Sequence record: OM386662.1
Direction: 5' to 3' (one strand)
DNA length: 64,000 nt
DNA from: Escherichia phage vB_EcoM_ESCO47
The stretch's first letter is position 1, and each line of letters begins with the position of its first letter. Below, one piece after another: positions 19,814 to 34,922 of this stretch. The notes under the pieces are model-generated. The model was given only the letters and a program-made list of their open reading frames with translations, had not been told where the DNA came from and made no database searches. The translations under genes were made by a program, and so were the position numbers.

Positions 19814-19842
19814 AGCCCCTTCCGAAAGGTTGGGGCTTTTTT
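19814..19842 (+). terminator. Intrinsic terminator after tRNA/small RNA region
   Basis: AGCCCC-TTCCGAAAGGTT-GGGGCT followed by TTTTTT. Confidence 0.7.
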
Positions 19843-19843
19843 G

Positions 19844-19851
19844 TATAAATA
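19844..19851 (+). promoter_or_regulatory. T4 late promoter
   Basis: TATAAATA immediately after terminator, 36 nt upstream of ORF 19887. Confidence 0.55.
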
Positions 19852-19886
19852 TAGTAAACAATAAACCTACTTTCTAAGGACCATCA

Positions 19887-20507
19887 ATGTATACCTTTAA
19901 TGAATTTTTAGCCGAAACGGAAGTAATCACCGAAGCCGGTGTACGTATGACAAAAGAGAAATGGCAAGCTGCTTACGACGCTATTTCTGGTACAAAAACT
20001 AGTACAGAGTTTTTCAAAAACGTTCAAGCCATGTACGGTATCGACACTTCCAGCCAAAAAGAATATTACAGAGCTTCTAAAGCATTCAAAGATATTGTTA
20101 GTGGTGGTGTTTCTGCTAAATCAGGTTCGCCTAAAGTAAAACCTGCTCCTACCATTCCTAAACCTGCGTCCCCTAAAGCAAAACCTGAGCCTAAGCCGGA
20201 AGTAAAAGCAACTCCTAAAGCTCCTGCTCTTAAGTTTGATACTTCTAGCCTGGAAAAAAAATATAAACAACTATCTTCGCTTGTTCGTGATATTGAATCT
20301 GATACATCTTCACTCGTTCGTGAATTCAATAGTCTTCGTAATGGCCAACATATCAACAACCTTGATACCCCAGACCTTTATCGTCTTTATTTGACTATCG
20401 AAGGTTTGAAGTACACTCAACCACTTCATGATGAGATTAAAGAAAAACTTCGTCAAGCAGGTCGTTTGGCTGCTGACGCTGCTCAGTATGCAAAAACTCG
20501 TAAGTAA
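19887..20507 (+). CDS. Hypothetical protein with CTS-like N-terminus and Pro/Lys-rich linker
   Basis: MYTFNEFLAETE resembles the capsid targeting sequence; KPAPTIPKPASPKAKPEPKPE linker; late promoter TATAAATA upstream. Confidence 0.55.
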   Translation: MYTFNEFLAETEVITEAGVRMTKEKWQAAYDAISGTKTSTEFFKNVQAMYGIDTSSQKEYYRASKAFKDIVSGGVSAKSGSPKVKPAPTIPKPASPKAKPEPKPEVKATPKAPALKFDTSSLEKKYKQLSSLVRDIESDTSSLVREFNSLRNGQHINNLDTPDLYRLYLTIEGLKYTQPLHDEIKEKLRQAGRLAADAAQYAKTRK

Positions 20508-20510
20508 AGA

Positions 20511-20530
20511 ATGGGGACTTCGGTCCCCAT
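20511..20530 (+). other. C(UUCG)G tetraloop RNA hairpin
   Basis: ATGGGGAC-TTCG-GTCCCCAT directly after stop codon of ORF 19887-20507. Confidence 0.6.
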
Positions 20531-20568
20531 TAGGGGTCTATAACTTACTGAAAAAGTTGTTTACTTCT

Positions 20569-20608
20569 TCCCTAGATGTGTTACTATAGACCTATCAACA
20601 ACATGAGG
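20569..20608 (+). promoter_or_regulatory. T4-type early promoter
   Basis: GTTTAC ... TGTTACTAT ... CCTATCAA. Confidence 0.55.
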
Positions 20609-20616
20609 AGAATATT

Positions 20617-20922
20617 ATGAGTCTTTACACTGAACTGAATAAAAAAACTGAAGAATCTGCTGAAACTATTTTTAAAAACGTGCAAAAGCGTATTTTAGAA
20701 AAGATGTATAACGCTGCAGCTAAAGGTGAAAAATCTTGTCGGTTTCCGATGAGGTGTTCTTCTGATTTATGCGCAAATACTATTGAATGGTTGGAAAGTG
20801 AAGGTCTTACGGTAGAGAAAAACCCGGCGACTTCTATTGATGGCGAATCATATATTAGTATTTCTTGGGATAAACCACGTATGAATGAAGGACACTACAA
20901 GTTGTTAAGTTGGAAAAATTAA
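20617..20922 (+). CDS. Hypothetical protein
   Basis: 101-aa ORF with GAGGAG RBS and own early promoter. Confidence 0.5.
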   Translation: MSLYTELNKKTEESAETIFKNVQKRILEKMYNAAAKGEKSCRFPMRCSSDLCANTIEWLESEGLTVEKNPATSIDGESYISISWDKPRMNEGHYKLLSWKN

Positions 20923-20931
20923 AAATAATGA

Positions 20932-20970
20932 TGTATAAACACCAATGATGGTGATACTATAGACTTATCA
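20932..20970 (+). promoter_or_regulatory. T4-type early promoter (variant -35)
   Basis: GTATAAAC ... TGATACTAT ... CTTATCAA. Confidence 0.4.
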
Positions 20971-20989
20971 ACTACAGAGGAGAAACAAA

Positions 20990-21217
20990 ATGGCTAAAGT
21001 TAGTATTGATGTCGTTGATTATGAATACACAGAAGAAGTTATTCGCAACCGTCACCCTGAAGTTCGTATCGATTCAGTACAAGATTCCAAGTTCTGGACA
21101 ACTGAGCTTAATCTGAGTGGTCCTTATGAAGCTGTTAAGAAGTTCATGGTTGAAGAATACTGCGAAGGAATGCACCCGGAAGACGCCAAGTTTTATGTCA
21201 ATTTGATTAAAAAATAA
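20990..21217 (+). CDS. Hypothetical protein
   Basis: 75-aa ORF with GAGGAG RBS. Confidence 0.5.
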   Translation: MAKVSIDVVDYEYTEEVIRNRHPEVRIDSVQDSKFWTTELNLSGPYEAVKKFMVEEYCEGMHPEDAKFYVNLIKK

Positions 21218-21252
21218 TTTACAAACTCTTGAGAGCAGAGTATAATGCTCTC
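21218..21252 (+). promoter_or_regulatory. Sigma70-type promoter with -10 embedded in a palindrome
   Basis: TTTACA-N17-TATAAT; inverted repeat GAGAGCA / TGCTCTC brackets the -10. Confidence 0.5.
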
Positions 21253-21287
21253 ATTGGATAATAAACCACCAATTGAAAGGTAATAAT

Positions 21288-21881
21288 ATGAACACACTGA
21301 AGAAACTTGTTGAATTCATCCGCACTAAACTGGGTACTGCTATGGCTAAAAATCTTACTGTCGAAGAACAGTATAACGCAGCTGCAGATAAGTTGATTAC
21401 CCAAATCAAAGAACTAAAAACGGCTTCTGTTAAATCTATTAATGAAGAAAAACGTATTCGCGAACTTGTTAATGAAAAGAACAAGCAAGCCGCTTCTAAG
21501 GAACGTGAAATTCGTAAGCTCCTGGCTGAAGGACAGGATGTTACCATGCATGCTAAGCTTGGTCTTCTGTATCGTCGAACTGCCGAACAACTTAATACAA
21601 AAGCTGATGGGTATGCCGCTATGCGAATTGAAATTGCTCGTAAGGTGGTTGAACTTGACGATGCTCGTCAGAATCTGGCAATCAAACTCGAATACATTCG
21701 TGAAACTCGAGCAGCCAATGCCCTTGGTATCTCTACGGCTGATGATGTAATTGAAATCGCTGCACTGACTAAGGTTGATATCGAAGACACTCTGACTCGT
21801 GTTGAAACGTTCAATGGCTCTCCAGCTGGTGTCGAAACCACTTCTGCTGATGTACAAGAATATATTAACTCTTTGAAATAA
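21288..21881 (+). CDS. Hypothetical coiled-coil protein
   Basis: Start set at MNTLKK with GAAAGG RBS; long predicted helical/coiled-coil region. Confidence 0.5.
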
Positions 21882-21889
21882 AATAATAC

Positions 21890-21911
21890 GGAGGACTCCG
21901 GTCCTCCTTTT
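21890..21911 (+). terminator. Intrinsic terminator
   Basis: GGAGGAC-TCCG-GTCCTCC followed by TTTT. Confidence 0.65.
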
Positions 21912-21930
21912 GGATAATAAAGGAGTTAAC

Positions 21931-22533
21931 ATGCGAAACCAAAATAATGATATTGACTCAATGTTCGAAGAGTTCCGAGATAAGGTAAATCCACCTACGT
22001 CTTTAGTTGATTCATTACGATATGTTGCAACCGGACGTAAATGGTACTGGTCGTCTTCTTATGAGACCACCGAGAAAACGGCTAGCCATAGCAGAAAATC
22101 TTTATTAGCCCCAGGTATTATGATTCATGATATCGGAGCTATTGCTAAACTAGTTGCAGACCATGATATTAGATTCACTGATTTCGTTGCTCCTACGTGG
22201 TCTGTTTGTTGTTTAAACACTGAATGGGAATATATCAGCGAACGCTCTGAAGATTATTATGGTTTTAGAGATAAGCTTCTGAGGTCTAATATGTTTTATA
22301 TCGATACAGAAGTTCTAGTCGATAATAAAAAATATTACTTTACGTTAATCATCGATTCTGAAACTATGTATGAAGGCAAGCCTTTGCTTAAAAGAGTTGA
22401 TGCTTTAAGTGCTATTGATGCGCTTTATGAAACTATGGTTGTTAGTCCTAATTTCACTAACAATTTAATCCTTGAGCAATTTATTATGGAATGTAGAGAA
22501 TATGTCAAAGCCAACCCTGTACATGCCAATTAA
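21931..22533 (+). CDS. Hypothetical protein
   Basis: Start set at MRNQNND after AAGGAG RBS; follows terminator hairpin. Confidence 0.5.
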   Translation: MRNQNNDIDSMFEEFRDKVNPPTSLVDSLRYVATGRKWYWSSSYETTEKTASHSRKSLLAPGIMIHDIGAIAKLVADHDIRFTDFVAPTWSVCCLNTEWEYISERSEDYYGFRDKLLRSNMFYIDTEVLVDNKKYYFTLIIDSETMYEGKPLLKRVDALSAIDALYETMVVSPNFTNNLILEQFIMECREYVKANPVHAN

Positions 22534-22897
22534 GCCCTGGGCATATGAATACAAGCGTAAATTAATCCCAAATGAAGTACTATTTGGCCCTATTTTAGCT
22601 TTAGCATTTTTAATCTTTATGATTATAGGAGCCGTTTTAGATTCTAGTGAAGTTATATCGTCTGATGCAGCATTTTCATTAATGTTCGTCGCACCACTTA
22701 TTGTACCGTTTTTATTAATGCCTATTAACTGGATGGGATATTGGTACCAAGGACGTCATCACAGAGCCAGATTAAGAGAATGGAAAGTTCAGTGCGCAAA
22801 AGCCCAAGCTCAGTATGATGAAGCTGTTAAAAAATACGAATACAATGAAGCCATGGAATTCGTTAAGGAAATAAGATGCAAAAGCCTCAACTCTTAA
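22502..22897 (+). CDS. Small membrane protein, FIKECR-tail family
   Basis: Start MSKPTLYMP after conserved junction GGAATGTAGAGAATATG; two TM segments; C-terminal EFVKEIRCK. Confidence 0.45.
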   Translation: MSKPTLYMPIKPWAYEYKRKLIPNEVLFGPILALAFLIFMIIGAVLDSSEVISSDAAFSLMFVAPLIVPFLLMPINWMGYWYQGRHHRARLREWKVQCAKAQAQYDEAVKKYEYNEAMEFVKEIRCKSLNS

Positions 22898-23235
22898 CCG
22901 TATGGCCTTCTCTTGGTGAGAACATTCTAATTTTTATTATGAGTATTGGCATGGGATTTGCCTTTGGATTAGTTGGATTTCTTATTGACAGCGTTGTGTT
23001 AGGATTTATAGGGAACACTGGTGGATTCACAGACCAATGGCAGGACTTACGGTATACCCAAGCCTTTGCATCCATCGCATCATTTTGTACTGTAGTCTAT
23101 TTTTACTACGATTTTATAAACCACAACAAGAAAAATAAAAAGGTTTACGCTTCTCAAATGATTAGTTATAATGAACTCCTAGCTAGACGTGAAAATGAAA
23201 CAATCGAAAACTTTATTAAGGAATGTAGAAAATGA
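22876..23235 (+). CDS. Small membrane protein, FIKECR-tail family
   Basis: AAGGA RBS; TM segments; ends ENFIKECRK. Confidence 0.5.
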   Translation: MQKPQLLTVWPSLGENILIFIMSIGMGFAFGLVGFLIDSVVLGFIGNTGGFTDQWQDLRYTQAFASIASFCTVVYFYYDFINHNKKNKKVYASQMISYNELLARRENETIENFIKECRK

Positions 23236-23537
23236 GTAAGATTATTGAAATTAAAGTACCAGAGTTTAATGATGCCAAATCCGCTTCAGATGCAATTTAT
23301 AAACTTCTGAATCAAGCTGAACGTATCGAAGAAGAAGCAACAAAGATCGCAGACCAATATGCCGTATCATTTTCTGTAGGTGATTATGGTAGCGGTCGTA
23401 CTTATTATCCTAAGGGTGAAATCGTATCCCAGTGGATGAAAAATGAAATTGAAAATAATGGTGGCGATGTTAAGCGTGAAGGTAATGGTTACGTTATTAC
23501 TGAAGGTGCTTGGGTTTCGTCTTCTGCGTTGTGCTAA
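23232..23537 (+). CDS. Hypothetical protein, GWVSSSxxC-tail paralog 1
   Basis: ATGA coupling; C-terminus GAWVSSSALC shared with the next two genes. Confidence 0.5.
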   Translation: MSKIIEIKVPEFNDAKSASDAIYKLLNQAERIEEEATKIADQYAVSFSVGDYGSGRTYYPKGEIVSQWMKNEIENNGGDVKREGNGYVITEGAWVSSSALC

Positions 23538-23546
23538 GGAATCACT

Positions 23547-23819
23547 ATGTCTAAAGAACAAACCGAACTGGCTGAAGCTGTAGCAAAAATCTATGCATCT
23601 ATTGAGGCAGCCAAAGAAATTGCTGATAAACAAAACACCACGTTTAATTTGTATCCGGCATATGGTATGGGCGGAACCTATCATTCACCAGGTTATCTTA
23701 AAGCCGACCTTGAACATCATACTAAACATGGTAACCCTGAATGGGCTGACGTTTACCAATATGACTACAACCTGAGCCTTGAAGATGGCGGTTGGGTTGC
23801 ATCTTCTCACACTTGCTAA
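23547..23819 (+). CDS. Hypothetical protein, GWVSSSxxC-tail paralog 2
   Basis: AAGGA RBS; C-terminus GGWVASSHTC. Confidence 0.5.
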   Translation: MSKEQTELAEAVAKIYASIEAAKEIADKQNTTFNLYPAYGMGGTYHSPGYLKADLEHHTKHGNPEWADVYQYDYNLSLEDGGWVASSHTC

Positions 23820-23828
23820 GGAAACCAT

Positions 23829-24026
23829 ATGTCTCGTGAATTAGATTGTGCTGTACGTACGGCAGTAGCTGCTCTGGAAAACCTGTTCCAAATTGCAACA
23901 GAAGAACGCGAAGAAGTTACATTATGGATTGAAGATAACGCAGGTCTGAATCTCCAGGACGCGATTTCATTATCCCACAATAGTATTACTGTTCAAGGCT
24001 GGGTATCATCTAGTTATTCTTGCTAA
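23829..24026 (+). CDS. Hypothetical protein, GWVSSSxxC-tail paralog 3
   Basis: AAGGA RBS; C-terminus QGWVSSSYSC. Confidence 0.5.
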   Translation: MSRELDCAVRTAVAALENLFQIATEEREEVTLWIEDNAGLNLQDAISLSHNSITVQGWVSSSYSC

Positions 24027-24030
24027 AACA

Positions 24031-24072
24031 GTTTACAACAAGATAGGGCTATGTTATAGTAGTCCTATCAAA
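24031..24072 (+). promoter_or_regulatory. T4-type early promoter
   Basis: GTTTAC ... TGTTATAGT ... CCTATCAA. Confidence 0.55.
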
Positions 24073-24088
24073 TTAAATGGAGTCCACA

Positions 24089-24328
24089 ATGATTTATTAC
24101 GAAAGTATCGGAACCGAAGTAGTTGCTAAAACTATTACTCGTGAAAAGTTTGCAAAGATATTCGATATGCGTTATAAAAAATCTGAACACAAAGGCATCC
24201 GATTCAAAGATGCGCACTGTACAATTTGCCCTTATAATGAAGACATAAATGGTACAATCGTTCCATTGGTAGAGGCTTCACATGATGACCTCTGGGATGA
24301 ATATAATATCGCATGTCGTGAAATTTAA
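24089..24328 (+). CDS. Hypothetical protein
   Basis: Start set at MIYYESIG after early promoter. Confidence 0.45.
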   Translation: MIYYESIGTEVVAKTITREKFAKIFDMRYKKSEHKGIRFKDAHCTICPYNEDINGTIVPLVEASHDDLWDEYNIACREI

Positions 24329-24353
24329 GTAATCTAAATTCGAGGAAATTATT

Positions 24354-25310
24354 ATGATGTTAGTTATTGGTTCTCGTGCACTTCACTATCACGGTCTTAT
24401 TGATTCTAGCGCTATTAAAAATAGTGATTGGGACTTTATTGCGGATCAAGGTTCTTGGAATGCATTCAAAAATCAAATGATGGGTGTATATGTTCACCAA
24501 GATAACCCTGATGTCCAAGTTTTCAAATGCTTCCATAATGGACGCGAAACTCATTTTGAAGCATATATTGTTCCGGCAATCACTAATGTCCGTGAATTAG
24601 TCGGTGAACTCACTCCTGAAGATTTCACGTCTTCTTATGACCTTTTAAAATACGCCAGGAAAAATTTGACTAAAGACCGTTTGAACGGGTTTTACTGGGC
24701 AACTCCTGAGATATGTCTTGCAATTAAGATGTCTCATCGTTTCAAGAAAAATAATCCATTCTTTTTAAAGACTATGAACCATATTCAGTATCTTCGTGGT
24801 AAAGGTGTTACACCGAACGATGAACTTACTGAAATTATGCTGAAACGCCAGAAAGAAACCTTGAATTATGCTCACCCAGTTCTTGACACTTCTAAAAGTG
24901 CGTTCTTTAAAGATGACATCTATACATATGACCATGATACTATTCATGAAGCCATTGCACTAACAGACCGTCCAGCGTATACATTTTATATGAAAGACGG
25001 TTCTGAAGTCATGACCTCACGCGAGAAGTTCGAATTGTTACCAGAAATGGTCAAATTGGCCGGTGTATACGAAGAATCATGTGTACTAGCATTAGAACGT
25101 TCTCAGATTCCTAATGACTTTAAAATTAACCCTGAAGCCAGTTTCATGATGGCATTGGAAAAAGTCTGTACAAGCATCACCTCCGGTTGGTTCCGTGAGT
25201 ATGCCTGGGAAAACTACAGCAAAGTAGTAAGTATGTACCAAAGCTTAGGACATGATGATTACATCAAACGTTTCAAACAAAATTTCCATATGGTAAAACC
25301 TTTCAAATAA
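24354..25310 (+). CDS. Predicted nucleotidyltransferase-fold protein
   Basis: N-terminal GSRALHYHG...SDWDFIAD fits the minimal nucleotidyltransferase GS...DxD signature; GAGGA RBS. Confidence 0.5.
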   Translation: MMLVIGSRALHYHGLIDSSAIKNSDWDFIADQGSWNAFKNQMMGVYVHQDNPDVQVFKCFHNGRETHFEAYIVPAITNVRELVGELTPEDFTSSYDLLKYARKNLTKDRLNGFYWATPEICLAIKMSHRFKKNNPFFLKTMNHIQYLRGKGVTPNDELTEIMLKRQKETLNYAHPVLDTSKSAFFKDDIYTYDHDTIHEAIALTDRPAYTFYMKDGSEVMTSREKFELLPEMVKLAGVYEESCVLALERSQIPNDFKINPEASFMMALEKVCTSITSGWFREYAWENYSKVVSMYQSLGHDDYIKRFKQNFHMVKPFK

Positions 25311-25322
25311 CTTCACAAAACT

Positions 25323-25363
25323 GTTTACAACATGATAGGACTATGTTATAGTAGTCCTATTAA
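25323..25363 (+). promoter_or_regulatory. T4-type early promoter
   Basis: GTTTAC ... TGTTATAGT ... CCTATTAA. Confidence 0.55.
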
Positions 25364-25380
25364 AACATGAGGAGAATATT

Positions 25381-25686
25381 ATGAAATTAGGCGAAACCAA
25401 CCGAATTGGCCTTTTAACAATATTTGCATCACCTTTTTACGCAGCCCTTTCTGTTGCAGTATTACAAAAGGCTTACGATATGGATGGTGTTCCTGGTTTT
25501 GTATTCTTATCACCGTTTTTATTATTCGTCGGAGCATTGTTATTATATGCAACTACCGGTTTAGACCATAATGTCTGGGTCAATTATAAATGTAAATTGT
25601 CTGAAGAAGAACACGCAGAAGCTCGTAAAAAAACTATTGAATCTACCAATCTAGAAAATTTCATTAAAGAATGTCGAGGAAAATAA
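25381..25686 (+). CDS. Small membrane protein, FIKECR-tail family
   Basis: GAGGAG RBS; TM segments; ends ENFIKECRGK. Confidence 0.5.
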   Translation: MKLGETNRIGLLTIFASPFYAALSVAVLQKAYDMDGVPGFVFLSPFLLFVGALLLYATTGLDHNVWVNYKCKLSEEEHAEARKKTIESTNLENFIKECRGK

Positions 25687-25687
25687 T

Positions 25688-26374
25688 ATGAATAGTTCTA
25701 AAGTGTTTAATAGTCAAGCTCGTGCAGTAGGTGGTTTTGCTCATGCGATTAAAAACGGCCAAATTAAAAACGAGACTATGTTCTTTAACTGCGATTTGAA
25801 TTTTGCTTTTGATAATGGCGGCCCAATTACTCGTAGCTTTATCCAAAATCTTCCTGACGATTGGAAAGACTCGGATGTAGTATTTGATTCACGAGTCCAC
25901 ATGCTGATGCCTGGTTGGTATCCTGCTATCCCAGGTTATCACCATGACGATGTACCACGCCCTGATATTCCAGTTGGTCAACACTTTATTACTGCAGGAC
26001 AACCTGACTATGACAATCCTCGCTATTTGTCTGAACATATTCTTGGACTTGTTAACGCTGATGTGTGTCCTACTCATTTTGCAACAGGAACTGCAGAGTT
26101 CAGTCAGATTCCTGATGGCGAACTTATCTATCGTCAGTGGCACAAAGAAGTCCTCGAAAAAATCGAAAAAGGTGAACTAGAGAAATGGGAAGCTCCAGAT
26201 CGTACTCTTCTTCAGTTTGATTGGCAAACATGGCACACTGGTTCTCGTGCAATTAGTAACGGATGGCGTTGGTTCGGACGTGTATCTCGTAATACAGACC
26301 GAGTTAAAAAGATTACCAATGAAATTCGTGTCAATGCTCAAGTTTATCTGGAATTCCCTATGGAAGGCTGGTAA
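25688..26374 (+). CDS. Hypothetical protein
   Basis: 228-aa ORF with GAGGA RBS; no confident domain. Confidence 0.5.
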   Translation: MNSSKVFNSQARAVGGFAHAIKNGQIKNETMFFNCDLNFAFDNGGPITRSFIQNLPDDWKDSDVVFDSRVHMLMPGWYPAIPGYHHDDVPRPDIPVGQHFITAGQPDYDNPRYLSEHILGLVNADVCPTHFATGTAEFSQIPDGELIYRQWHKEVLEKIEKGELEKWEAPDRTLLQFDWQTWHTGSRAISNGWRWFGRVSRNTDRVKKITNEIRVNAQVYLEFPMEGW

Positions 26375-26865
26375 TGATTAACAAAACATATTGGTCTAAT
26401 ATTGACGACGGCAATGAAGGTATTTCGTACTATTCAGTAGATTGGACAGGATGTCCATCCTACTTAGTGAAACGTATTTGCCAAGAATTTAAAATCAACC
26501 AGCCAGCAGGTATTATCGTGAACAGATACATTAATGGATATCAACCTATCGATGAAGTAATACGAACAACTCAAGCTGATCTTGAAAAGTTTTTCAATAA
26601 GTGCCAATGGATAACAGGATGGATTATATTTGTACCGTCGGTATGGTTTTTCAGTACTAAGGTGAGTTCTTTCGGTTTTGTTGATATTATCGCTATCTTA
26701 TTAGCATCTACTATTGTAAGTGTTGTTGGTGGCATCATTGGCGGCGGTACCGCCGCCATCATTATTAATCTTATTAAAAGTAGTTTACAAGAACATAAAG
26801 ACAAGATAAAAGCCAAGAATAATGAAGTTGAACGTTTTATTACCGAATGCAGGAATTTGAGATGA
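26374..26865 (+). CDS. Membrane protein, FIKECR-tail family
   Basis: TAATG coupling; Gly-rich TM segments; ends ERFITECRNLR. Confidence 0.5.
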   Translation: MINKTYWSNIDDGNEGISYYSVDWTGCPSYLVKRICQEFKINQPAGIIVNRYINGYQPIDEVIRTTQADLEKFFNKCQWITGWIIFVPSVWFFSTKVSSFGFVDIIAILLASTIVSVVGGIIGGGTAAIIINLIKSSLQEHKDKIKAKNNEVERFITECRNLR

Positions 26866-28115: not shown

Positions 28116-28193
28116 AGTTACTTGAACAGACAAATCACTAATTAAAATATTTACATTTAGAACTCATATGAAAACATATAAAGAATTTATCGC
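28116..28193 (+). repeat. 78-bp direct repeat (leader and CTS codons), copy 1
   Basis: Matches 28602-28679 with one mismatch. Confidence 0.8.
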
Positions 28194-28566
28194 AGAGAAT
28201 GTAATTCCTGCATCTAAAGAACTTTTGGTGACGTTTGAATCCGAAGAGTTCACCGAAGAACTGAATGAGAACCTGACTACTGCCACACCTCAGGTTATCC
28301 GTGTTCGTAACGCCCTGCAGTCAGGCATGCCGGCCGGTGTCTCTAAGACCATGAAGTTGGCATTCACTACTTCTAATAACGAAGACTTTGGCAACGGTAT
28401 CGCTATGAACACTGGGCAGTATTATGTTGAGTGGAACGGTGAAACCGGCACGGCTAAGATTCGTCAGACACGTGCCGCTGGTGGCAAAATGCTGGACGTT
28501 AAACTAAACGTTAAAGAGAAAGACGTTGTAGCTCTGTTCAAGAACTGGATGAAATCTTACAAATAA
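28168..28566 (+). CDS. Internal head protein (IpIII-like position) with capsid targeting sequence
   Basis: N-terminus MKTYKEFIAEN; position after e as T4 ipIII. Confidence 0.65.
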   Translation: MKTYKEFIAENVIPASKELLVTFESEEFTEELNENLTTATPQVIRVRNALQSGMPAGVSKTMKLAFTTSNNEDFGNGIAMNTGQYYVEWNGETGTAKIRQTRAAGGKMLDVKLNVKEKDVVALFKNWMKSYK

Positions 28567-28600
28567 GTTTACATCTCCTAGAATTGTGATAGTATATCTA
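28567..28600 (+). promoter_or_regulatory. T4-type early promoter
   Basis: GTTTAC ... TGATAGTAT. Confidence 0.5.
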
Positions 28601-28601
28601 C

Positions 28602-28679
28602 AGTTACTTGAACAGACAAATCACTAATTAAAATATTTACATTTAGGACTCATATGAAAACATATAAAGAATTTATCGC
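28602..28679 (+). repeat. 78-bp direct repeat, copy 2
   Basis: Matches 28116-28193 with one mismatch. Confidence 0.8.
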
Positions 28680-29229
28680 TGAAGCTTCTGTAGCAAAAGC
28701 CCAAGGCATTAATAAAGACGAGTGGACTTACCGCGGAAATGGCTTTGACCCTAAAACAGCTCCTATCGAACGGTACTTAGCTACAAAGGCTTCCGACTTT
28801 AAAGCCTTCGCTTGGGAAGGACTTCGCTGGCGTAACGATCTAAATATTGAAGTTGACGGACTTAAATTTGCCCATATTCAAGATGTTGTTGCTAGTAACT
28901 TGGACGCAGCTTTTGTTAAAGCTGACGGTGACCTTCGTCGCTGGAATTTAAAACTATTCTCTAAACAGAAAGGTCCGGTGTTTGTGCCTAAAGCTGGTAA
29001 ATGGGTTATTGATAATAAATTAGCTAAGGCTGTCAACTACGCTGGTCTTGAATTCGCCAAGCATAAATCAAGATGGAAAGGTCTTGATGCAATGGACTTC
29101 CGTAAAGAATTTGCCGATGTTATGACTAAAGGCGGCTTTAAGGCAGAAATAGATACCTCTAAAGGTATGTTTAAAGACGCTAATATTCAGTACGCGTATG
29201 CTGTTGCTAATGCAGCCCGTGGTAATTAA
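28654..29229 (+). CDS. Internal head protein (IpII/IpIII-like) with capsid targeting sequence
   Basis: N-terminus MKTYKEFIAEA; 78-bp leader repeat shared with previous gene. Confidence 0.65.
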   Translation: MKTYKEFIAEASVAKAQGINKDEWTYRGNGFDPKTAPIERYLATKASDFKAFAWEGLRWRNDLNIEVDGLKFAHIQDVVASNLDAAFVKADGDLRRWNLKLFSKQKGPVFVPKAGKWVIDNKLAKAVNYAGLEFAKHKSRWKGLDAMDFRKEFADVMTKGGFKAEIDTSKGMFKDANIQYAYAVANAARGN

Positions 29230-29267
29230 TAAGGCCTATACGGCTTATTTACATTTAAAGGAAACAT

Positions 29268-29570
29268 ATGAAAACATATCAAGAATTTATTACTGAAGCG
29301 CGAGTGAGTGCAGGTAAATTAGAAGCCGCTATAAATAAAAAGGCCCATTCATTTCATGATTTGTCCGATAAAGACCGTAAGAAACTTGTAAGCCTTTATA
29401 TTGACAAAGAGCGTATTCTCGCTCTTCCTGGCGCTAATGAAGGTAAACAGGCCAAGCCTTTGAATGCTGTCGAAAAGAAAATTGATAACTTTGCTTCTAA
29501 ATTTGGTATGTCTATGGATGACCTTCAGCAAGCGGCTATCGAAGCAGCTAAAGTAATTAAAGGTAAATAA
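29268..29570 (+). CDS. Internal head protein family member with capsid targeting sequence
   Basis: N-terminus MKTYQEFITEA. Confidence 0.65.
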   Translation: MKTYQEFITEARVSAGKLEAAINKKAHSFHDLSDKDRKKLVSLYIDKERILALPGANEGKQAKPLNAVEKKIDNFASKFGMSMDDLQQAAIEAAKVIKGK

Positions 29571-29572
29571 CA

Positions 29573-29606
29573 GTTTACTTTCTCCTAGAATTGTGATATT
29601 ATATTC
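29573..29606 (+). promoter_or_regulatory. T4-type early promoter (upstream of denV remnant)
   Basis: GTTTAC ... TGATATTAT. Confidence 0.5.
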
Positions 29607-29627
29607 ATAATTACTTGGGTGGGTAAA

Positions 29628-29756
29628 ATGACTTATATTAATTTGACTTTAGTATCTGAATTTGCTGATCAACATTTAATCGCTGAATATTGTGAATTAC
29701 CATGTGGTTTTGGTGTAATTCGTAAATACGTGGCAAAAATATTTACATTCAAATAA
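29628..29756 (+). pseudogene. denV: denV (endonuclease V, pyrimidine-dimer glycosylase) remnant, truncated after 42 codons
   Basis: [25 protein letters not shown] aligns to recalled T4 Endo[26 protein letters not shown] but Arg3, Arg22, Arg26 are replaced and the frame stops at codon 43. Confidence 0.6.
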
Positions 29757-29902
29757 AATGGGAACAACCTGGACCTCATGATTCTATGAGGGATTCCCGC
29801 CGACCTGTAATAAGGTCGAGCGCAATGCGGTAATGAGTTTACATAGCGAGTCGAAGGACCTAACATGTGCCAAGGAATGGCCCAAACCTAGAGAGAAATA
29901 AT

Positions 29903-30442
29903 ATGAGAACATTTTTAACCGGACCTTATCTATCCCTGATGAATGCTTTTACACACCATTCTGATGCTAGAGTAGAAGAAATTTGTAAGAACGGTTATAT
30001 CCCACCATTTGAAGACGTACTCAAGCAGTACTGTACACTTCGTTTAGACGGTGGCAGACAATCAGGTAAATCAACTGCAGTAACTAATTTTGCCGCTAAT
30101 TGGCTGTACGACGGTGGAACAGTTATTGTTCTTTCTAATACTTCAGCTTATGCTAAAATTTCTGCTGGCAACATTGAAAAAGAATTTTCTCGTTATTCTA
30201 GCGATGATATTCGATTCCGTTTATTTACTGATTCTGTCCGTAGTTTTATTGGCAATGAAGGTTCTAAATTCCGTGGATTAACGCTTTCTCGTATTCTGTA
30301 TATAATTGACGAGCCTATTAAAGCTCCTGATATGGATAAGATTTACAATGCCCATATTAAAACAGTACAGCACTGCTGCAAAAGCAAATATTGCATCGGC
30401 GGTATTGCTCGTCCTCAATTTTTTGTGATAGGAATGCAATGA
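29903..30442 (+). CDS. P-loop NTPase-like hypothetical protein
   Basis: Walker A-like GGRQSGKST; start set at MRTFLTG with AGAGAG RBS. Confidence 0.5.
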   Translation: MRTFLTGPYLSLMNAFTHHSDARVEEICKNGYIPPFEDVLKQYCTLRLDGGRQSGKSTAVTNFAANWLYDGGTVIVLSNTSAYAKISAGNIEKEFSRYSSDDIRFRLFTDSVRSFIGNEGSKFRGLTLSRILYIIDEPIKAPDMDKIYNAHIKTVQHCCKSKYCIGGIARPQFFVIGMQ

Positions 30443-30792
30443 CAACAGTAGAAGTTTTTGAGTATTGTTACGCCAGCCCAGTGTGTAATAAACGAGCTCT
30501 CGTAGAAAATTATGAGATCTATCATTTTAAACCTAAACGATACCGTTTGACTAAAGGACCTTTTAAAGGTGAAGAAGTTCTTTGCACAGCTCCTAATGCA
30601 CGGTTGATGACTAGTATTCCGCATTTCAAAATGGAATTCATAGGACGTAAATACAAAGGGTTGATTACACAAAGTCTGATGGCTTATGACTCTGATCCGA
30701 TTTTGATGGAACCTACTGAATTTAAATCGTATTATTCTGGTTCTGTAAAGACCGTTGAAAATAATTCTTTTACGGTGGCATATCATGGCTAA
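30439..30792 (+). CDS. Hypothetical protein
   Basis: ATGA-coupled start MTTVEVFEY (ORF-track start 30391 upstream). Confidence 0.45.
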   Translation: MTTVEVFEYCYASPVCNKRALVENYEIYHFKPKRYRLTKGPFKGEEVLCTAPNARLMTSIPHFKMEFIGRKYKGLITQSLMAYDSDPILMEPTEFKSYYSGSVKTVENNSFTVAYHG

Positions 30793-31003
30793 ATTGACTA
30801 TTGAAGGCTCTGATGAAGCTTTGAAAAGATTCGTTGAATGGTTTAATGGACCTGGTGAACAAGACTTTCTGGAAGTCCAGGACGGTGGTCAATGGAATGG
30901 CAAAGAAATGGTTTATCCGACCACTTATATCTCTGTTCAGGGTTGGACCGACGGACTTCGTTTAGTAGAATATGATATTGCAACAAGTGAGGAAGTGAAA
31001 TGA
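30785..31003 (+). CDS. Hypothetical protein
   Basis: Start MAKLTIEG overlapping previous stop. Confidence 0.4.
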   Translation: MAKLTIEGSDEALKRFVEWFNGPGEQDFLEVQDGGQWNGKEMVYPTTYISVQGWTDGLRLVEYDIATSEEVK

Positions 31004-31263
31004 TTGAAGATATTAAGGGTTACAAACCGCATACCGATGAAAAAATAGGTAAAGTAAATGCTATCAAAGACGCGGAAGTCCGTCTTGGGTTGTTGTTTGA
31101 TGCTCTGATTGAAGAAGCATATATCTTGAAAGAAAATGAAACAGAGCAACAAACCAAAGAAGATATGGGTGCAGTGCAGGCTCTTAAGTATGCTAAGCAA
31201 CATCTAAAAGAAGCCAGCATGTGGGCTTGTCGCGCAGTTTTCCGACCTGAAGAAAAATACTAA
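31000..31263 (+). CDS. Hypothetical protein
   Basis: 87-aa ORF, ATGA-coupled. Confidence 0.45.
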   Translation: MIEDIKGYKPHTDEKIGKVNAIKDAEVRLGLLFDALIEEAYILKENETEQQTKEDMGAVQALKYAKQHLKEASMWACRAVFRPEEKY

Positions 31264-31267
31264 AACT

Positions 31268-31307
31268 GTTTACTTCTCCTCTAGTTGTGTTACTATAGAC
31301 CTGTCAA
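31268..31307 (+). promoter_or_regulatory. T4-type early promoter (regB)
   Basis: GTTTAC ... TGTTACTAT ... CCTGTCAA. Confidence 0.55.
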
Positions 31308-31324
31308 TTAGAGGAGAAATCAAA

Positions 31325-31783
31325 ATGACAATCAATTCAGAAGTTTTCATTCGTCGCAACAAACTCCGTCGAATCTTCGAATCGGAGTTCCGTCAAATCA
31401 ACGCCGATATCAAGAACTCTGCAAAAGCTCTTGGTATCACAGGCTTTCATATCAAGTATTCTCAACATCTTTTAGATCGTGCTATTCAACGTGAAATCGA
31501 TGAGAACTACGTTTTTGAATTATTCCGTAAAGTAAAAAATCATGTTAAAGAAGTTGCAGAATTTTTATCAATGCCAGCACGTCCTGATGTTGACGAAGAT
31601 TTTGTCGAAGGAGTTGAGTATCGTCCAGGACGTTTAGAAATAACCGATGGAAATCTTTGGTTAGGACTTACTGTCTGTCGAGAAAATCCTGCATTTGAAA
31701 TGAAAACTCTCCAATGCAGAATGGCTATTATCAATAGCAAACGACTACCTGGAAAAGCTTCAAAAGCAGTGATTAAAATCTAG
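31325..31783 (+). CDS. regB: Endoribonuclease RegB
   Basis: MTINSEVFIRRNKLRRIFESEFRQIN...RMAIINSKRLPGKASKAVIKI matches recalled T4 RegB; own early promoter. Confidence 0.9.
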   Translation: MTINSEVFIRRNKLRRIFESEFRQINADIKNSAKALGITGFHIKYSQHLLDRAIQREIDENYVFELFRKVKNHVKEVAEFLSMPARPDVDEDFVEGVEYRPGRLEITDGNLWLGLTVCRENPAFEMKTLQCRMAIINSKRLPGKASKAVIKI

Positions 31784-31791
31784 AGGTAAAC

Positions 31792-32334
31792 ATGAGAAAA
31801 GCACTACTCGCTGGTCTGTTAGCACTATCTTTAAATGCATACAGCTCCGAGCATACTTTCAGTAATGTCCAACTCGATAACTTGAAATACGCTTATCAGT
31901 TTGGGGAACAGTTTTCTAAGGATGGAAAATTTAAAACGCACGAAAATATGCATAAGAAAGGTCTTGGTTATATAATGGCTGCGATACTATGGCAAGAGTC
32001 GTCAGCAGGTATAAATGTCAAAGACAAAAAGGGACACCATTCTTATGGTATGTTTCAAAATTATTTACCGACAATGAAATCAAGAACAAAGGAACTCGGA
32101 TATAATATGTCCGATTCTCAAATTAAGAAAATGCTATCTAAGCGGTCTAATTCAGCAAGATGGGCTTATATCGAATTTTCTTATTGGTTAAATATACATA
32201 ATGGGGATATAAGAAAAGCTATATCTTCGTATAATGCGGGATGGAACCAAAAAGCAGGCCAGAAATATGCTAGTGAAGTCCTGGAAAAGGCTAATTACCT
32301 TAAATCGCATAAACTACTGGAAACACACGAATGA
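31792..32334 (+). CDS. Secreted lytic transglycosylase-like protein (T4 vs.1 position)
   Basis: N-terminal signal peptide MRKALLAGLLALSLNA; WQESSAG motif reminiscent of transglycosylase catalytic Glu. Confidence 0.5.
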   Translation: MRKALLAGLLALSLNAYSSEHTFSNVQLDNLKYAYQFGEQFSKDGKFKTHENMHKKGLGYIMAAILWQESSAGINVKDKKGHHSYGMFQNYLPTMKSRTKELGYNMSDSQIKKMLSKRSNSARWAYIEFSYWLNIHNGDIRKAISSYNAGWNQKAGQKYASEVLEKANYLKSHKLLETHE

Positions 32335-32675
32335 CCAAAATATTGCTTTTATTGGTTAGTATAGCTTCATTTGCAGCAAACGCAGTCACCAAATATGCGG
32401 AAGTTGTGGAGTATACAAATAGAACGTCTTCTGATTATTGTGGTAAAAACAAAGCGTGCCAGGTGGATTTTGCACAAAAACTTTTATATGCATACAAAGA
32501 TGGAGAAAAAGACGGAATGTCTCCCTATAAGTCAGAGACATTAATTAAACGATACAATAAAAAATGGCAAGTACTAGAATGTTCGGCAGCGGCACCAAAG
32601 GATAAAGCATTATGTGATTCTATGGTAGACCGCTTAGTTGATTCATATACAAGAGGACTAACTTCTTGTGATTAA
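32331..32675 (+). CDS. Small exported protein at the T4 vs (valyl-tRNA synthetase modifier) position
   Basis: 114 aa with hydrophobic N-terminus; assignment by synteny only. Confidence 0.35.
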   Translation: MTKILLLLVSIASFAANAVTKYAEVVEYTNRTSSDYCGKNKACQVDFAQKLLYAYKDGEKDGMSPYKSETLIKRYNKKWQVLECSAAAPKDKALCDSMVDRLVDSYTRGLTSCD

Positions 32676-33135
32676 AAACTATATCAAGGGCGATATCGTC
32701 GCCCTGTTTTCTGAAGGTAAAAATATTGCTCATGGGTGCAATTGTTTCCATACAATGGCTGCCGGTGTAGCAGGTCAATTGGCTAAAGCTTTTCCTAAAA
32801 TATTAGAAGCTGATAAGCTTCAAACCGAATGGGGTGATGAGACTAAACTTGGTTCATTTTCTGTTTACGAAAAGTATTTTAAAACTCATAAGGCATATTG
32901 CTTTAATCTTTATACACAGTTTGAGCCGGGACCTAATTTTGAGTACTCTGCTTTAATGAATTGTATGTTAGAATTAAATGACTTCGGTAAAAATAAATTA
33001 GCTAAACCGGTAATTTATATGCCACGAATTGGAGCCGGAATTGGTGGTGGAAATTGGGATGTCATCGAAGAGATTTTAGATACGTATTCCACTAAACTAG
33101 AAATTGTGATTGTTGATTGGGAACCGTTATTATGA
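32668..33135 (+). CDS. Macro-domain protein (TARG1/DarG-like ADP-ribose processing fold)
   Basis: GDIVALFSEGKNIAHGCNCFHTMAAGVAGQLAKAFP and later PRIGAGIGGGNW resemble macro-domain signatures. Confidence 0.55.
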   Translation: MIKNYIKGDIVALFSEGKNIAHGCNCFHTMAAGVAGQLAKAFPKILEADKLQTEWGDETKLGSFSVYEKYFKTHKAYCFNLYTQFEPGPNFEYSALMNCMLELNDFGKNKLAKPVIYMPRIGAGIGGGNWDVIEEILDTYSTKLEIVIVDWEPLL

Positions 33136-33344
33136 ATATACATTATCCACATCCATATGACCCAAAGAATAAGGCAGTAATTATTCGTCAATGGGAACGC
33201 ATTTGTCGTACCAAATGTCCAATTAATAGTCCACATGATGTAGATAAAGACTACATCGGAACATTAGTTGAATATACCTTTATTGATAAGAAAGGCCGTA
33301 AACAACATGTAGAAGAATATTGCTTAAAGGTGACATGGCTATGA
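33132..33344 (+). CDS. Hypothetical protein
   Basis: ATGA-coupled start MNIHYPH. Confidence 0.4.
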   Translation: MNIHYPHPYDPKNKAVIIRQWERICRTKCPINSPHDVDKDYIGTLVEYTFIDKKGRKQHVEEYCLKVTWL

Positions 33345-33547
33345 GTCAAACAAAAATTCTTACAGGTGCTAAATGCGAAAAATGCGAATGGCCTGTAGTT
33401 TTTGCTTTATGCAATGACGAAATGGCTTGTGATTTTGATTATTGGTGTTACTGTTCGAACAAAGGTTGTAGCAATCATAAAGGTGAAGGTTTTTACTCAG
33501 GATTTTACCCTTACCCAGATTTCGTTAAAGAAGGTGAACCTAAATGA
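33341..33547 (+). CDS. Cys-rich hypothetical protein (possible zinc ribbon)
   Basis: CEKCEWP...CNDEMACDFDYWCYCSNKGCSNH. Confidence 0.4.
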   Translation: MSQTKILTGAKCEKCEWPVVFALCNDEMACDFDYWCYCSNKGCSNHKGEGFYSGFYPYPDFVKEGEPK

Positions 33548-33726
33548 AATTAACTAAAGAAGAGAAAGCTAAACTGTTCGAACTTATCCATGACCTATTG
33601 GATGAGCAAGCAGCCACCAATGCGTACGATGAATATGCTCCTTTAACAGATGAAGAATATCAAGCATTGATGGAATCATTTGACAGGAAAGAACAAGAAC
33701 TCATTGACTACGTGAATTCACTATAA
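33544..33726 (+). CDS. Hypothetical acidic protein
   Basis: 60-aa ATGA-coupled ORF. Confidence 0.4.
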   Translation: MKLTKEEKAKLFELIHDLLDEQAATNAYDEYAPLTDEEYQALMESFDRKEQELIDYVNSL

Positions 33727-33735
33727 GGGACTCTT

Positions 33736-34317
33736 ATGGCTAGTTTAATTTTTACATATGCCGCTATGAACGCTGGTAAGTCTGCTTCATTACTTACTGC
33801 CGCACACAACTATAAAGAACGTGGCATGGGTGTATTAGTTCTTAAACCGGCTATTGATACTCGCGATTCAAAAGGTGAAATAGTCTCTCGTATTGGTATT
33901 CGTCAGGATGCCAATATAATTACAAAAGACATGGATATCTTTGAATTCTATAAATGGGCTGCAGCACAAAAGGATATTCATTGTGTATTTGTTGATGAAG
34001 CTCAGTTCTTAACTACTGAAAAGGTGTATCAACTTAGTCGTATTGTTGACGTGTACAATGTGCCGGTAATGGCATATGGACTACGAACAGATTTTAAAGG
34101 TAATCTATTTGAAGGTTCTCAAGCATTAATGGCTATTGCCGATAAGCTTGTTGAACTTAAAGGTGTCTGTCATTGTGGTAAAAAGGCCACAATGGTAGCT
34201 AGAGTCACGGAAGACGGACTTCCAATTACAGACGGCAGTCAAATTGAAATTGGTGATACCGATAGATATGTGTCATTATGCCGGAAGCATTGGAACGATT
34301 TGACAGGATTGTTATAA
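33736..34317 (+). CDS. tk: Thymidine kinase
   Basis: MASLIFTYAAMNAGKSASLLTAAHNYKERG... near-identical to recalled T4 Tk; P-loop and C-terminal CHCG zinc motif. Confidence 0.95.
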   Translation: MASLIFTYAAMNAGKSASLLTAAHNYKERGMGVLVLKPAIDTRDSKGEIVSRIGIRQDANIITKDMDIFEFYKWAAAQKDIHCVFVDEAQFLTTEKVYQLSRIVDVYNVPVMAYGLRTDFKGNLFEGSQALMAIADKLVELKGVCHCGKKATMVARVTEDGLPITDGSQIEIGDTDRYVSLCRKHWNDLTGLL

Positions 34318-34344
34318 ATACTAATATCTAACTAAGAGGTGTAT

Positions 34345-34557
34345 ATGCAGCATTTAAACGAAAGACAACTTCGTAATCTTACTGTTAGCCAATTAGATGA
34401 AATTCGAAGAGAGATTGGACATTCAATTTCTCATTTAAAAGAAGATATCCGTCAAACTGGTTCTAAAGCAGATTATACCCGTATGCGTAAGCTGGAAAAA
34501 TACCTCACAGATGTTAAGGCCGTCCAAAGGCGTAAAATTAATACAGGTCAAAAATAA
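34345..34557 (+). CDS. Hypothetical protein (T4 rI.-1 position)
   Basis: First ATG after AAGAGG RBS. Confidence 0.45.
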
Positions 34558-34569
34558 CAGGAGGCCGTT

Positions 34570-34869
34570 ATGGCCTTAAGAGCAATGGCCTTATTGGCAA
34601 TGCTTGGGTTGTTTGTAGCAACTACACCTTTTGTAAGTACTGCATATGTTGACCCACATTTTGATAACTATATGGAATCAGGGATTAAAAATGTTTATTC
34701 TCTATTTGAAATCCATAATGTAGAGAATTCTGAAAAATTTTATTCTTATATGGCTAAAAGTTTTAAAGCTAATCCCTGTCAAGATGCATTTGAATGCCAT
34801 GAACAAGGAACCAGAACCGCTAGACAGTTCGCAGAGTTTATGAATATAAAATTAAACGACTCATTCTGA
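34570..34869 (+). CDS. rI: Lysis inhibition regulator RI
   Basis: MALRAMALLAMLGLFVATTPFVSTAYVDPHFDNYMESGI... matches recalled T4 RI; N-terminal membrane anchor. Confidence 0.85.
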   Translation: MALRAMALLAMLGLFVATTPFVSTAYVDPHFDNYMESGIKNVYSLFEIHNVENSEKFYSYMAKSFKANPCQDAFECHEQGTRTARQFAEFMNIKLNDSF

Positions 34870-34893
34870 TGCATTTTAAATGCGACATAATCA

Positions 34894-34922
34894 AAGTCCC
34901 TTCCGAAAGGTTGGGACTTTTT
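34894..34922 (+). terminator. Intrinsic terminator after rI
   Basis: AAGTCCC-TTCCGAAAGGTT-GGGACTT followed by TTTT; same loop as terminator at 19814. Confidence 0.7.

Follow-up and report, generated by a model that had tools for sequence, protein, structure and literature searches.

Genes and Elements at the Two Loci

The window (the whole stretch of 64,000 nucleotides analyzed here, from Escherichia phage vB_EcoM_ESCO47; OM386662.1) is that of a T4-like phage and carries two similar hairpins on its + strand, to which the listed features of both loci belong. Site 1 follows a cluster of stable RNAs. Three tRNA genes, tRNA-Met, tRNA-Asn, and tRNA-Arg (19419–19652; ARAGORN and Rfam RF00005), are succeeded by a homolog of the T4 small stable RNA rnaD, or species 2 RNA (19654–19772), recognized from the T4 annotation and by alignment with T4, LH01, and fPS-90; in the same alignment, rnaC, which comes next after rnaD in T4, is cleanly missing from the window. 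A conserved 3′ trailer containing ACACTTACCTAGTAGGTGGAAACCCCGACAAGGT (19773–19813; alignment and an anchored listing of relatives) leads from the stable RNAs to the hairpin AGCCCC-UU-CC-GAAA-GG-UU-GGGGCU (19814–19837), which would close this unit and has orthologs in T4, LH01, and fPS-90. Its U-tract consists of six T (19837–19842), the first of which can pair with A19814.

A T4-type late promoter, TATAAATA, is predicted at 19844–19851, 36 nt upstream of the ATG at 19887. It is identical in LH01 and annotated in fPS-90, whose annotators independently marked a “terminator” and a “predicted late promoter” at the ortholog of site 1. Taken by itself, TATAAATA shows no enrichment across the window (10 occurrences vs. 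8.4 expected); its count was dropped as support for late promoters, and the call at 19844 therefore rests on position and conservation. The ATG opens a 206-aa ORF (19887–20507; phrog_2280) that is a member of repeat family D1 with 64% identity. It is probably a late, internal-protein-like gene, since the protein has MYTFNEFLAE at its N-terminus, a sequence similar to MKTYQEFIAE, a motif of internal virion proteins.

Site 2 lies behind a homolog of the lysis-inhibition gene rI (34570–34869; phrog_1246, E 2e-29, and RB69 annotation), the last gene of the tk-rI.1-rI block. The hairpin, AAAGUCCC-UU-CC-GAAA-GG-UU-GGGACUUU, occupies 34893–34920 with a G-C-rich core at 34896–34917 and has orthologs in RB69 and Av-05; as DNA it reads (A)AAGTCCC-TT-CC-GAAA-GG-TT-GGGACTT(T), followed by TTGG, and its U-tract of five T (34918–34922) partly overlaps the stem base. 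A T4-type early promoter is predicted at 34934–34963, with a -35 box GTTTAC (34934–34939), a TGn element (34955–34957), and a -10 box TATAGT (34958–34963). In the promoter scan, it had 10 of 12 matches with the TG (TGtTATAGT at 34955–34963); it belongs to the repeated promoter families D2 and D4 and is conserved in RB69, which has an equivalent cassette at site 2 with the site-1 stem. The GAGGAG ribosome-binding site and the 35-aa ORF (34992–35099) that begin the downstream block (34980–35099) are also where RB69-type nucleotide homology stops. Upstream, the window is Mosigvirus-like (about 80%), and from 35207 on it is VR5/VR25/VR26-like (about 85%), so that a mosaic junction, with a switch of homology partner within 34990–35207, is located at site 2.

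The initial annotation had placed hairpins at 19814 and 34894, each followed directly by a promoter, late at 19844 and early at 34934; both hairpins were recovered at these places, and the predicted promoter elements are in position behind them.

Sequence and Predicted Fold of the Hairpin Pair

Both TTCCGAAAGGTT and CCGAAAGG occur exactly twice in the window. The common inner sequence with a GAAA loop and a C-C/G-G clamp, as described by the initial annotation, is exact, and the shared stretch is longer than was claimed: the exact repeat covers 18 nt (CCCTTCCGAAAGGTTGGG), and 29 of 33 nt are identical overall (repeat family D13). Chance was rejected as the origin of the 18-nt repeat because it is expected only about 0.05 times per 64-kb sequence of the same dinucleotide composition.

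The predicted fold of both RNAs comprises six to eight outer pairs, a 2×2 U·U/U·U internal loop, the CC/GG clamp, and the GAAA loop, with 8–10 pairs in total. The fold energies are -16.0 kcal/mol (z -3.4) at site 1 and -15.8 kcal/mol (z -4.5) at site 2. Only one stem pair, the third from the base, is changed on both sides between the two hairpins, from C-G at site 1 to U-A at site 2, and site 2 has one or two additional A-U pairs at its base. The site-2 orthologs of RB69 and Av-05 have the AGCCCC stem of site 1; therefore, the GUCCC/GGGAC of the window is a double-sided compensatory change, as had been proposed for the outer stems.

At both sites, a small-loop G-C-rich hairpin with a U-tract directly 3′ of it, a co-oriented upstream unit, and a compensatory stem change are found, as in intrinsic terminators. 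The U·U/U·U mismatch is predicted by the nearest-neighbor model to cost approximately 4 kcal/mol compared with paired versions; given this mismatch, termination efficiency may perhaps be lower than that of the T4 form. A terminator scan missed both sites because it required an uninterrupted stem, while a custom fold-based scan recovered both. At or above the gathering score of Rfam 15, no family was matched at either site, and the three tRNAs were the only matches in the whole window.

Distribution and Covariation of the Apex

Many phage contigs contain the 16-nt apex, on outer stems that covary. Covariation was scored over five outer stem pairs in 44 distinct sequences that had been selected only by the apex, and 61 double-sided changes were counted vs. 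18.6 ± 3.3 in shuffles, none of the 500 shuffles reaching 61. Paired cells amounted to 90.9% overall, compared with at most 64% when the 3′ partners were slid. U-G pairs are present in the outer stems of this set, and these can form on this strand only.

In bacterial genomes, the apex occurs at about chance level. None of 5,426 complete E. coli genomes contained it, and about four of the 120 bacterial and archaeal matches listed were terminator-like; on these counts, a host origin of the apex was rejected. Apart from complete T4-like genomes, the environmental contigs with the apex have almost no proteins in common with the window, and their PHROGs are those of varied phages.

The notion that the U·U/U·U version is uniquely favored was discarded, as scans with N at the middle positions showed the fully paired AG/UU version to be about as common once T4-like genomes were discounted; the U·U/U·U version is tolerated and recurrent. 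A Term-seq terminator survey contained nothing on tetraloops. It is quite improbable, in our estimate, that CC-UU-CC-GAAA-GG-UU-GG with its two stacked U·U pairs is a phage-specific terminator apex, kept or spread across unrelated phages for a function beyond that of a plain hairpin. If it were, factor recognition, one-directional termination, or a portable recombination handle moving terminator–promoter cassettes between phage families would be its candidate roles.

Copies in Relatives and Origin of the Pair

Site 1 is identified by alignment as the ortholog of the T4 terminator closing the tRNA/rnaD/rnaC cluster, a hairpin at NC_000866.4 70825–70858, about 55 nt past rnaC; across the window, T4, LH01, and fPS-90, the flanking genes are the same and the trailer is conserved. 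Further copies are found in relatives. In fPS-90, L184, L188, and L204, a late promoter and a gene lie between two hairpin copies spaced about 557 bp apart; the corresponding place in T4 has a single hairpin and lacks the gene. Three copies are present in JS98-like genomes, and in most of these, among the matches listed, all three share a different stem (GGC/GCC). Moreover, the 3′ flank of site 2 in RB69, TTTTTGGCATCTA, resembles that of site 1 in T4, TTTTTGGTATCTA.

From these comparisons, duplication of one hairpin is the most likely origin of the pair, which would make the two sites paralogs and not terminators of independent origin. The alternative is convergence, in which two terminators of separate ancestry would have settled on one favored apex: the stable tetraloop C(GAAA)G, carried by a G-C-rich stem whose 3′ arm contains U’s. 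The 16-nt apex does cap no fewer than 12 distinct outer stems, in contigs from a range of phages that include a PolA-encoding phage and various portal and capsid types, and related designs with G·U or A-U pairs in mid-stem are about as common among the matches listed. The identical 24-nt hairpin is also present in a T5-like Salmonella phage. With this hairpin, and with the same apex on other stems in unrelated phage contigs, simple duplication is evidently not the only way in which similar hairpins can originate or spread, and convergence at site 2 is conceivable. However, identity in the window runs past the stem (29/33 nt), the flank after the T-run is common to site 1 of T4 and site 2 of RB69, tandem copies bracket cassettes in relatives, and most JS98-like genomes have one stem for all their copies, unlike the AGCC/GGCT of the Tequatrovirus and Mosigvirus copies. 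Convergence is therefore considered unlikely.

Roles other than termination were also weighed. The hairpins might serve mainly as DNA, as targets for a recombinase, a homing endonuclease, or a cruciform-cutting enzyme that moves cassettes, with termination being incidental. Such a role would suit their location at indel and mosaic junctions and the homing-endonuclease genes near both loci (T4 segB; mobD in VR26), and the authors of the PeSL (promoter-early stem-loop) papers speculate on a DNA-binding protein and cite T4 deletions ending at GGGC/GCCC motifs (PMC2839356; PMC4122927). Yet the T-run is always 3′ of the same arm, the U-G wobble pairs would be C-A mismatches on the other strand, a cruciform would be weakened by T·T and A·A mismatches, the genes on either side of the elements are always co-oriented, and the indels can be explained by ordinary homologous recombination on short repeats, all of which makes a primary role in DNA very unlikely. 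Still less credible is a role in RNA processing, in which the apex with its U·U pairs would be the site of an RNA-binding protein or RNase and serve to direct processing or stability of the tRNA precursor and the mRNAs. An apex that is identical across many phages on variable stems, its absence from E. coli genomes, and the position of site 1 at the 3′ terminus of a precursor in need of processing are compatible with it, but the 5′ middle dinucleotide of orthologous site 1 varies among T4-like phages (GA, AG, UU, and UC) as it would at a tolerant stem position, no Rfam family is matched, and there is no known candidate binding protein.

Sequence and predicted fold, together with the orthology, the covariation, and the cassettes gained or lost between hairpin copies, are best accounted for if both elements are Rho-independent terminators of the + strand and two copies of one ancestral hairpin, a reading held to be highly probable.

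Proposed Function and Significance

On the terminator reading, the transcript would form a stem of G-C pairs with two stacked U·U mismatches and a CC/GG clamp closed by the GAAA tetraloop, and the U-tract 3′ of the stem would release the host RNA polymerase. Site 1 would end the early or middle transcript of the tRNA-rnaD cluster, and the late promoter seven bases further on would direct transcription of the internal-protein-like gene. Site 2 would end the tk-rI.1-rI transcript, and shortly after its T-run comes the -35 box of the following early promoter. With a terminator directly before a promoter at both junctions, one transcription unit would be insulated and the next begun within about 40–70 bp. 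Hairpin copies at several cassette edges would also provide short homology for recombination, which would account for small neighboring genes having been inserted, deleted, or replaced in relatives. We infer termination, promoter activity, and recombination at the hairpin; hairpin geometry, U-tracts, co-oriented placement, conservation, and the compensatory change support an assignment as putative intrinsic terminators with adjoining late and early promoters. The terminator–promoter junctions of the initial annotation are thereby supported; the T4 orthology of site 1, the likely paralogy, and the known class of cassette-boundary elements had been missed.

For annotation, the pair would fix two transcription-unit boundaries of the phage. 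It also suggests that copies of the T4 tRNA-cluster terminator have come to lie at further cassette edges in T4-like phages, among them late-promoter junctions beside internal-protein-like genes, which would extend the published view of terminator–promoter cassettes as seams of T4-type genome mosaicism. That one 16-nt apex is shared by many phages and lacking in the host offers a modest starting point for designing terminators and following phage–phage exchange.

Comparison With Known Systems

The T4 tRNA-cluster terminator resembles site 1 in having tRNA-Arg, rnaD, and the trailer upstream, an AGCCCC/GGGGCT stem, a CC-GAAA-GG apex, and a U-tract. It differs in having GA where the window has UU, which makes the T4 stem a fully paired one of 10 bp, and in having rnaC upstream, no TATAAATA after the hairpin, and no internal-protein-like gene.

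Extra-stable tetraloop hairpins with C(UUCG)G and GNRA loops were reportedly described from T4 intercistronic regions by Tuerk et al. in 1988, and like them, the present pair has a short G-C-clamped tetraloop capping a stem. Two C(UUCG)G hairpins occur in the window, at 20510–20531 and 58644–58663, both without a U-tract. The present pair is distinguished from the UUCG hairpins by its GAAA loops, its internal U·U/U·U motif, and its U-tracts.

PeSL cassettes are known from T4-type phages (Arbiol et al., 2010, PMC2839356; Comeau et al., 2014, PMC4122927). Site 2 has their order, a stem-loop directly before an early promoter, a ribosome-binding site (GAGGAG at 34980), and a start codon (ATG at 34992), whereas site 1 has the late TATAAATA promoter. 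As with PeSLs, the parts are repeated, the hairpin twice (D13) and the promoter part in four to seven copies (D2–D4 and D7), and indels are associated with them: site 2 marks a mosaic junction within a variable region, and duplicated hairpins bracket genes in fPS-90, L184, L188, L204, and JS98-like genomes. The stem of site 2 differs from the published consensus stems of RB49/phi1, PST, and nt-1. With a lacZ reporter, transcription was shown to stop at the stem-loop of published PeSL elements (PMC2839356; PMC4122927), whose architecture site 2 matches.

The terminator/promoter elements of the T-even internal-protein loci (Repoila et al., 1994), as summarized in PMC2839356, have early promoters and weak AT-rich stems. 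Going by that summary, they resemble site 1 and its relatives in flanking genes with an internal-protein-like N-terminal motif and differ from site 1, where a G-C-rich hairpin is followed by a late promoter. Since two hairpin copies flank inserted late genes in relatives and the homology partner switches at site 2, the pair matches the known terminator–promoter cassettes of T4-type phages (PeSL and internal-protein-locus elements). The pair is thus real but ordinary, as such cassettes at the edges of gene cassettes are already known in these phages.

Sequence and predicted fold of the hairpin pair

The window derives from a T4-like phage (Tevenvirinae), nearest to the Mosigvirus/RB69 group with approximately 80-94% nucleotide identity by segment, and early transcription runs along its + strand. 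Both hairpins lie on this strand: site 1 (AGCCCCTTCCGAAAGGTTGGGGCT, 19814-19837), with a T-run next and then TATAAATA at 19844-19851, and site 2 (AAAGTCCCTTCCGAAAGGTTGGGACTTT, 34893-34920), followed by TTGG, GTTTAC (34934-34939), and TGtTATAGT (34955-34963). The initial annotation had described a common inner sequence with a GAAA loop and suggested a genome-wide search for it; within the window, TTCCGAAAGGTT and CCGAAAGG occur exactly twice each, at these two sites only. The shared part proved longer than claimed, with an exact match of 18 nt and identity at 29 of 33 nt overall (repeat family D13), while the expected number of exact 18-nt repeats in a sequence of the window's composition is 0.05.

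Each RNA is predicted to form a stem of 6-8 outer pairs that leads through a 2x2 U.U/U.U internal loop to a CC/GG clamp closed by the GAAA loop, with energies of -16.0 (site 1) and -15.8 kcal/mol (site 2) and z-scores of -3.4 and -4.5, respectively. The compensating outer-stem changes proposed earlier were found as a single double-sided change, C-G to U-A on both arms, and site 2 has added basal A-U pairs. A standard terminator scan of the window picked up neither site because of the internal loop in the stem; a fold-based scan of the + strand ranked both with the most stable compact hairpin-plus-T-run sites.

Another family (D14, 82% over 33 nt) comprises near-identical C(UUCG)G tetraloop hairpins at 20510-20531 (AATGGGGACTTCGGTCCCCATT) and 58644-58663 (AATGGGACTTCGGTCCCATT), each right behind a stop codon and without a U-tract; an early promoter at 20560 comes after the former, and a 903-aa ORF at 58723 after the latter.

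Site 1 and the stable-RNA cluster

The 5' side of site 1 carries, in order, tRNA-Met, tRNA-Asn, tRNA-Arg, a homolog of the T4 small stable RNA rnaD, and a conserved trailer. The T4 hairpin at the matching position, AGCCCCGACCGAAAGGTTGGGGCT plus five T (NC_000866.4, 70825-70858), lies approximately 55 nt 3' of rnaC, which together with the shared upstream RNAs identifies site 1, judging from sequence, as the ortholog of the terminator closing the T4 tRNA/stable-RNA cluster. In the T4 terminator, 5' GA pairs with 3' UU to give a continuous 10-bp stem, whereas UU replaces GA in the window, LH01, and RB69, at a predicted cost of approximately 4 kcal/mol. The rnaC gene (T4 species 1 RNA, approximately 140 nt), present in T4, LH01, and fPS-90, is cleanly and entirely missing from the window in an alignment with these phages, the gap falling at 19772-19773 between the rnaD homolog and the trailer.

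The late promoter that had been placed directly after site 1, at 19844, is supported by an identical copy of TATAAATA in LH01 and by the annotation of fPS-90, which marks a terminator together with a predicted late promoter at the equivalent position. The motif is not enriched in the window (10 seen vs. 8.4 expected), and its count alone lends the promoter no support. The next gene (19887-20507, +; phrog_2280, a family of unknown function) encodes a protein beginning MYTFNEFLAE. At its start, the gene carries a diverged copy (64%) of the ribosome-binding-site and MKTYQEFIAE segment of family D1, which has eight copies in the window, one of them opening an ORF with a match to a family of internal virion proteins; this suggests that 19887-20507 is likely a late, internal-protein-like gene.

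Family D1, found at 17391, 17783, 18126, 19872, 28153, 28639, and 29253, consists of a ribosome-binding site and ATG AAA AC. TAT CAA GAA TTT AT. encoding MKTYQEFIAE, an internal-protein N-terminal motif, and marks two internal-protein-type gene clusters (approximately 17.3-18.4 and 28.1-29.3 kb). Around one small internal-protein gene, two 100% identical 49-nt early-promoter segments (18066-18114 and 18361-18409) lie 295 bp apart, likely a recent tandem cassette duplication.

Site 2 and the early-promoter cassette

Directly upstream of site 2 is a homolog of the lysis-inhibition gene rI (34570-34869, +; phrog_1246). RB69 has at the matching location the hairpin, T-run, GGCATCTATCAG, GTTTAC, TGTTATAGT, a ribosome-binding site, and ATG, and Av-05 has the same cassette. 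The RB69 stem here is AGCCCC/GGGGCT, the same as that of site 1 in the window; thus, with the position being orthologous, GUCCC/GGGAC at site 2 is a double change that preserves pairing. The early promoter reported right after site 2, at 34934, is conserved in this RB69 cassette. The initial observation is correct, and its interpretation holds.

In its promoter half, site 2 is a member of families D2 and D4, T4-type early promoters scattered over the window. Nucleotide homology with RB69-type phages ends at approximately 34988, where the next ORF starts, and from 35207 on, the best matches are VR5/VR25/VR26-type phages (approximately 85%), which places the cassette on a mosaic junction. The stretch directly 3' of it (34990-35207, approximately 220 bp) had no megablast match among 50,697 phage records; it holds a 35-aa ORF together with the beginning of the following one, and its flanks match two distinct T4-like lineages.

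Two other repeats were noted. A 49-nt repeat (21217-21265 and 49236-49284, 90%) contains a TTTACA...TATAAT promoter with an inverted repeat, GAGAGCAGAGTATAATGCTCTC, spanning the -10 box, and may represent an operator-controlled promoter pair. A 77-nt direct repeat (54536-54612 and 54800-54876, 73%), beginning TGTTTACAGTTATCAAAATGCCAACG, has its copies 264 bp apart.

Evidence of selection on the hairpin and occurrence of its apex

IMG/VR was searched with the 16-nt apex (the inner part of the hairpin) alone, the outer stem being unconstrained, which gave 79 full-context occurrences on 76 DNA stretches, or approximately 45 distinct contexts, approximately 32 of them with a T-run. In an alignment of 43 distinct 32-nt contexts from this search plus site 2, the five outer pairs showed 61 double-sided changes vs. 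18.6 +/- 3.3 in shuffled alignments (observed value reached in 0 of 500), and 90.9% of cells were paired overall vs. at most 64% with the 3' partners slid. The alignment also contains U-G pairs, compatible with this strand only. The pattern argues for selection of the hairpin as an RNA structure; a recombination or nuclease site acting at the DNA level is less well supported, and so is a hairpin serving protein recognition.

Convergence on a favoured apex is also less well supported as an account of the pair: the identity between sites 1 and 2 runs beyond the stem, through the T-run and further. The apex does recur in unrelated phages, such as environmental contigs with family-A DNA polymerase and diverse portal and capsid proteins. 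In phage contigs, the apex is found for the most part in terminators. The T5-like Salmonella phage vB_SenS_UTK0009, from an unrelated family, carries the 24-nt hairpin unchanged between two convergent genes (1501-1527, identical to site 1 over 27 nt), adjoining another hairpin that acts for the other strand. The design also occurs in an rV5-like phage, there with middle pairs U.G and G.U. In bacterial and archaeal genomes, the apex occurs at about chance frequency (at least 120 matches vs. approximately 280 by chance, estimated from the stated collection size), approximately four of the 120 matches listed being terminator-like, and none of 5,426 complete E. coli genomes matched a 51-nt query of the site-1 hairpin and flanks.

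Complete control scans of the middle positions (5'/3') gave 32 distinct terminator-like contexts for UU/UU (approximately 13 T4-like), 18 for AA/UU, 16 for GA/UU, and two for UU/AA; scans covering an estimated one-quarter of the collection gave seven for AG/UU and 0-2 for each other mismatch combination. By these counts, the U.U/U.U form recurs and is tolerated, at roughly the frequency of each fully paired form, and is not uniquely favoured. The strong preference for U over A on the 3' arm may simply let the 5' arm drift freely, because U pairs with A or G and stacks against U. The phage-wide recurrence of the apex is a small lead.

Cassettes in related phages and proposed role

The RB69 site-2 3' flank (TTTTTGGCATCTA) is similar to the T4 site-1 3' flank (TTTTTGGTATCTA). 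In fPS-90 and the related phages L184, L188, and L204, two hairpin copies approximately 557 bp apart enclose a late promoter and a small gene, and in L204, T4's own downstream flank follows the second copy; T4 has one hairpin and lacks this small gene. JS98-like genomes have three copies, two of which enclose internal-protein-like genes; the majority of the genomes have GGC/GCC in place of AGCC/GGCT in all three stems, and one retains AGCC at the site-1 ortholog. Such a pattern is expected if cassettes were gained and lost by recombination between copies.

Directly shown are the sequence and its predicted fold, the synteny, the covariation, and the indels of cassettes between hairpin copies. 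In the mechanism proposed, host RNA polymerase would terminate at the U-tracts of both sites, transcription would resume from a late promoter at 19844 and an early one at 34934, and the site-2 T-run, which precedes the predicted start by approximately 45-51 nt, would occupy the position of an AT-rich upstream element. The repeated hairpin may also be a substrate for homologous recombination.

The same model of cassette gain and loss via repeated elements was described for the promoter-early stem-loop (PeSL) cassettes of T4-type phages, where the stem-loop acted as a terminator in a reporter and crossovers were located inside or beside the loop (PMC2839356, PMC4122927). The PeSL authors also mention analogous elements at T-even internal-protein loci and T4 deletions with ends at GGGC/GCCC motifs. 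Site 1 is thus the known terminator of the T4 tRNA cluster, and site 2 is most likely a copy of it within a PeSL-type cassette.
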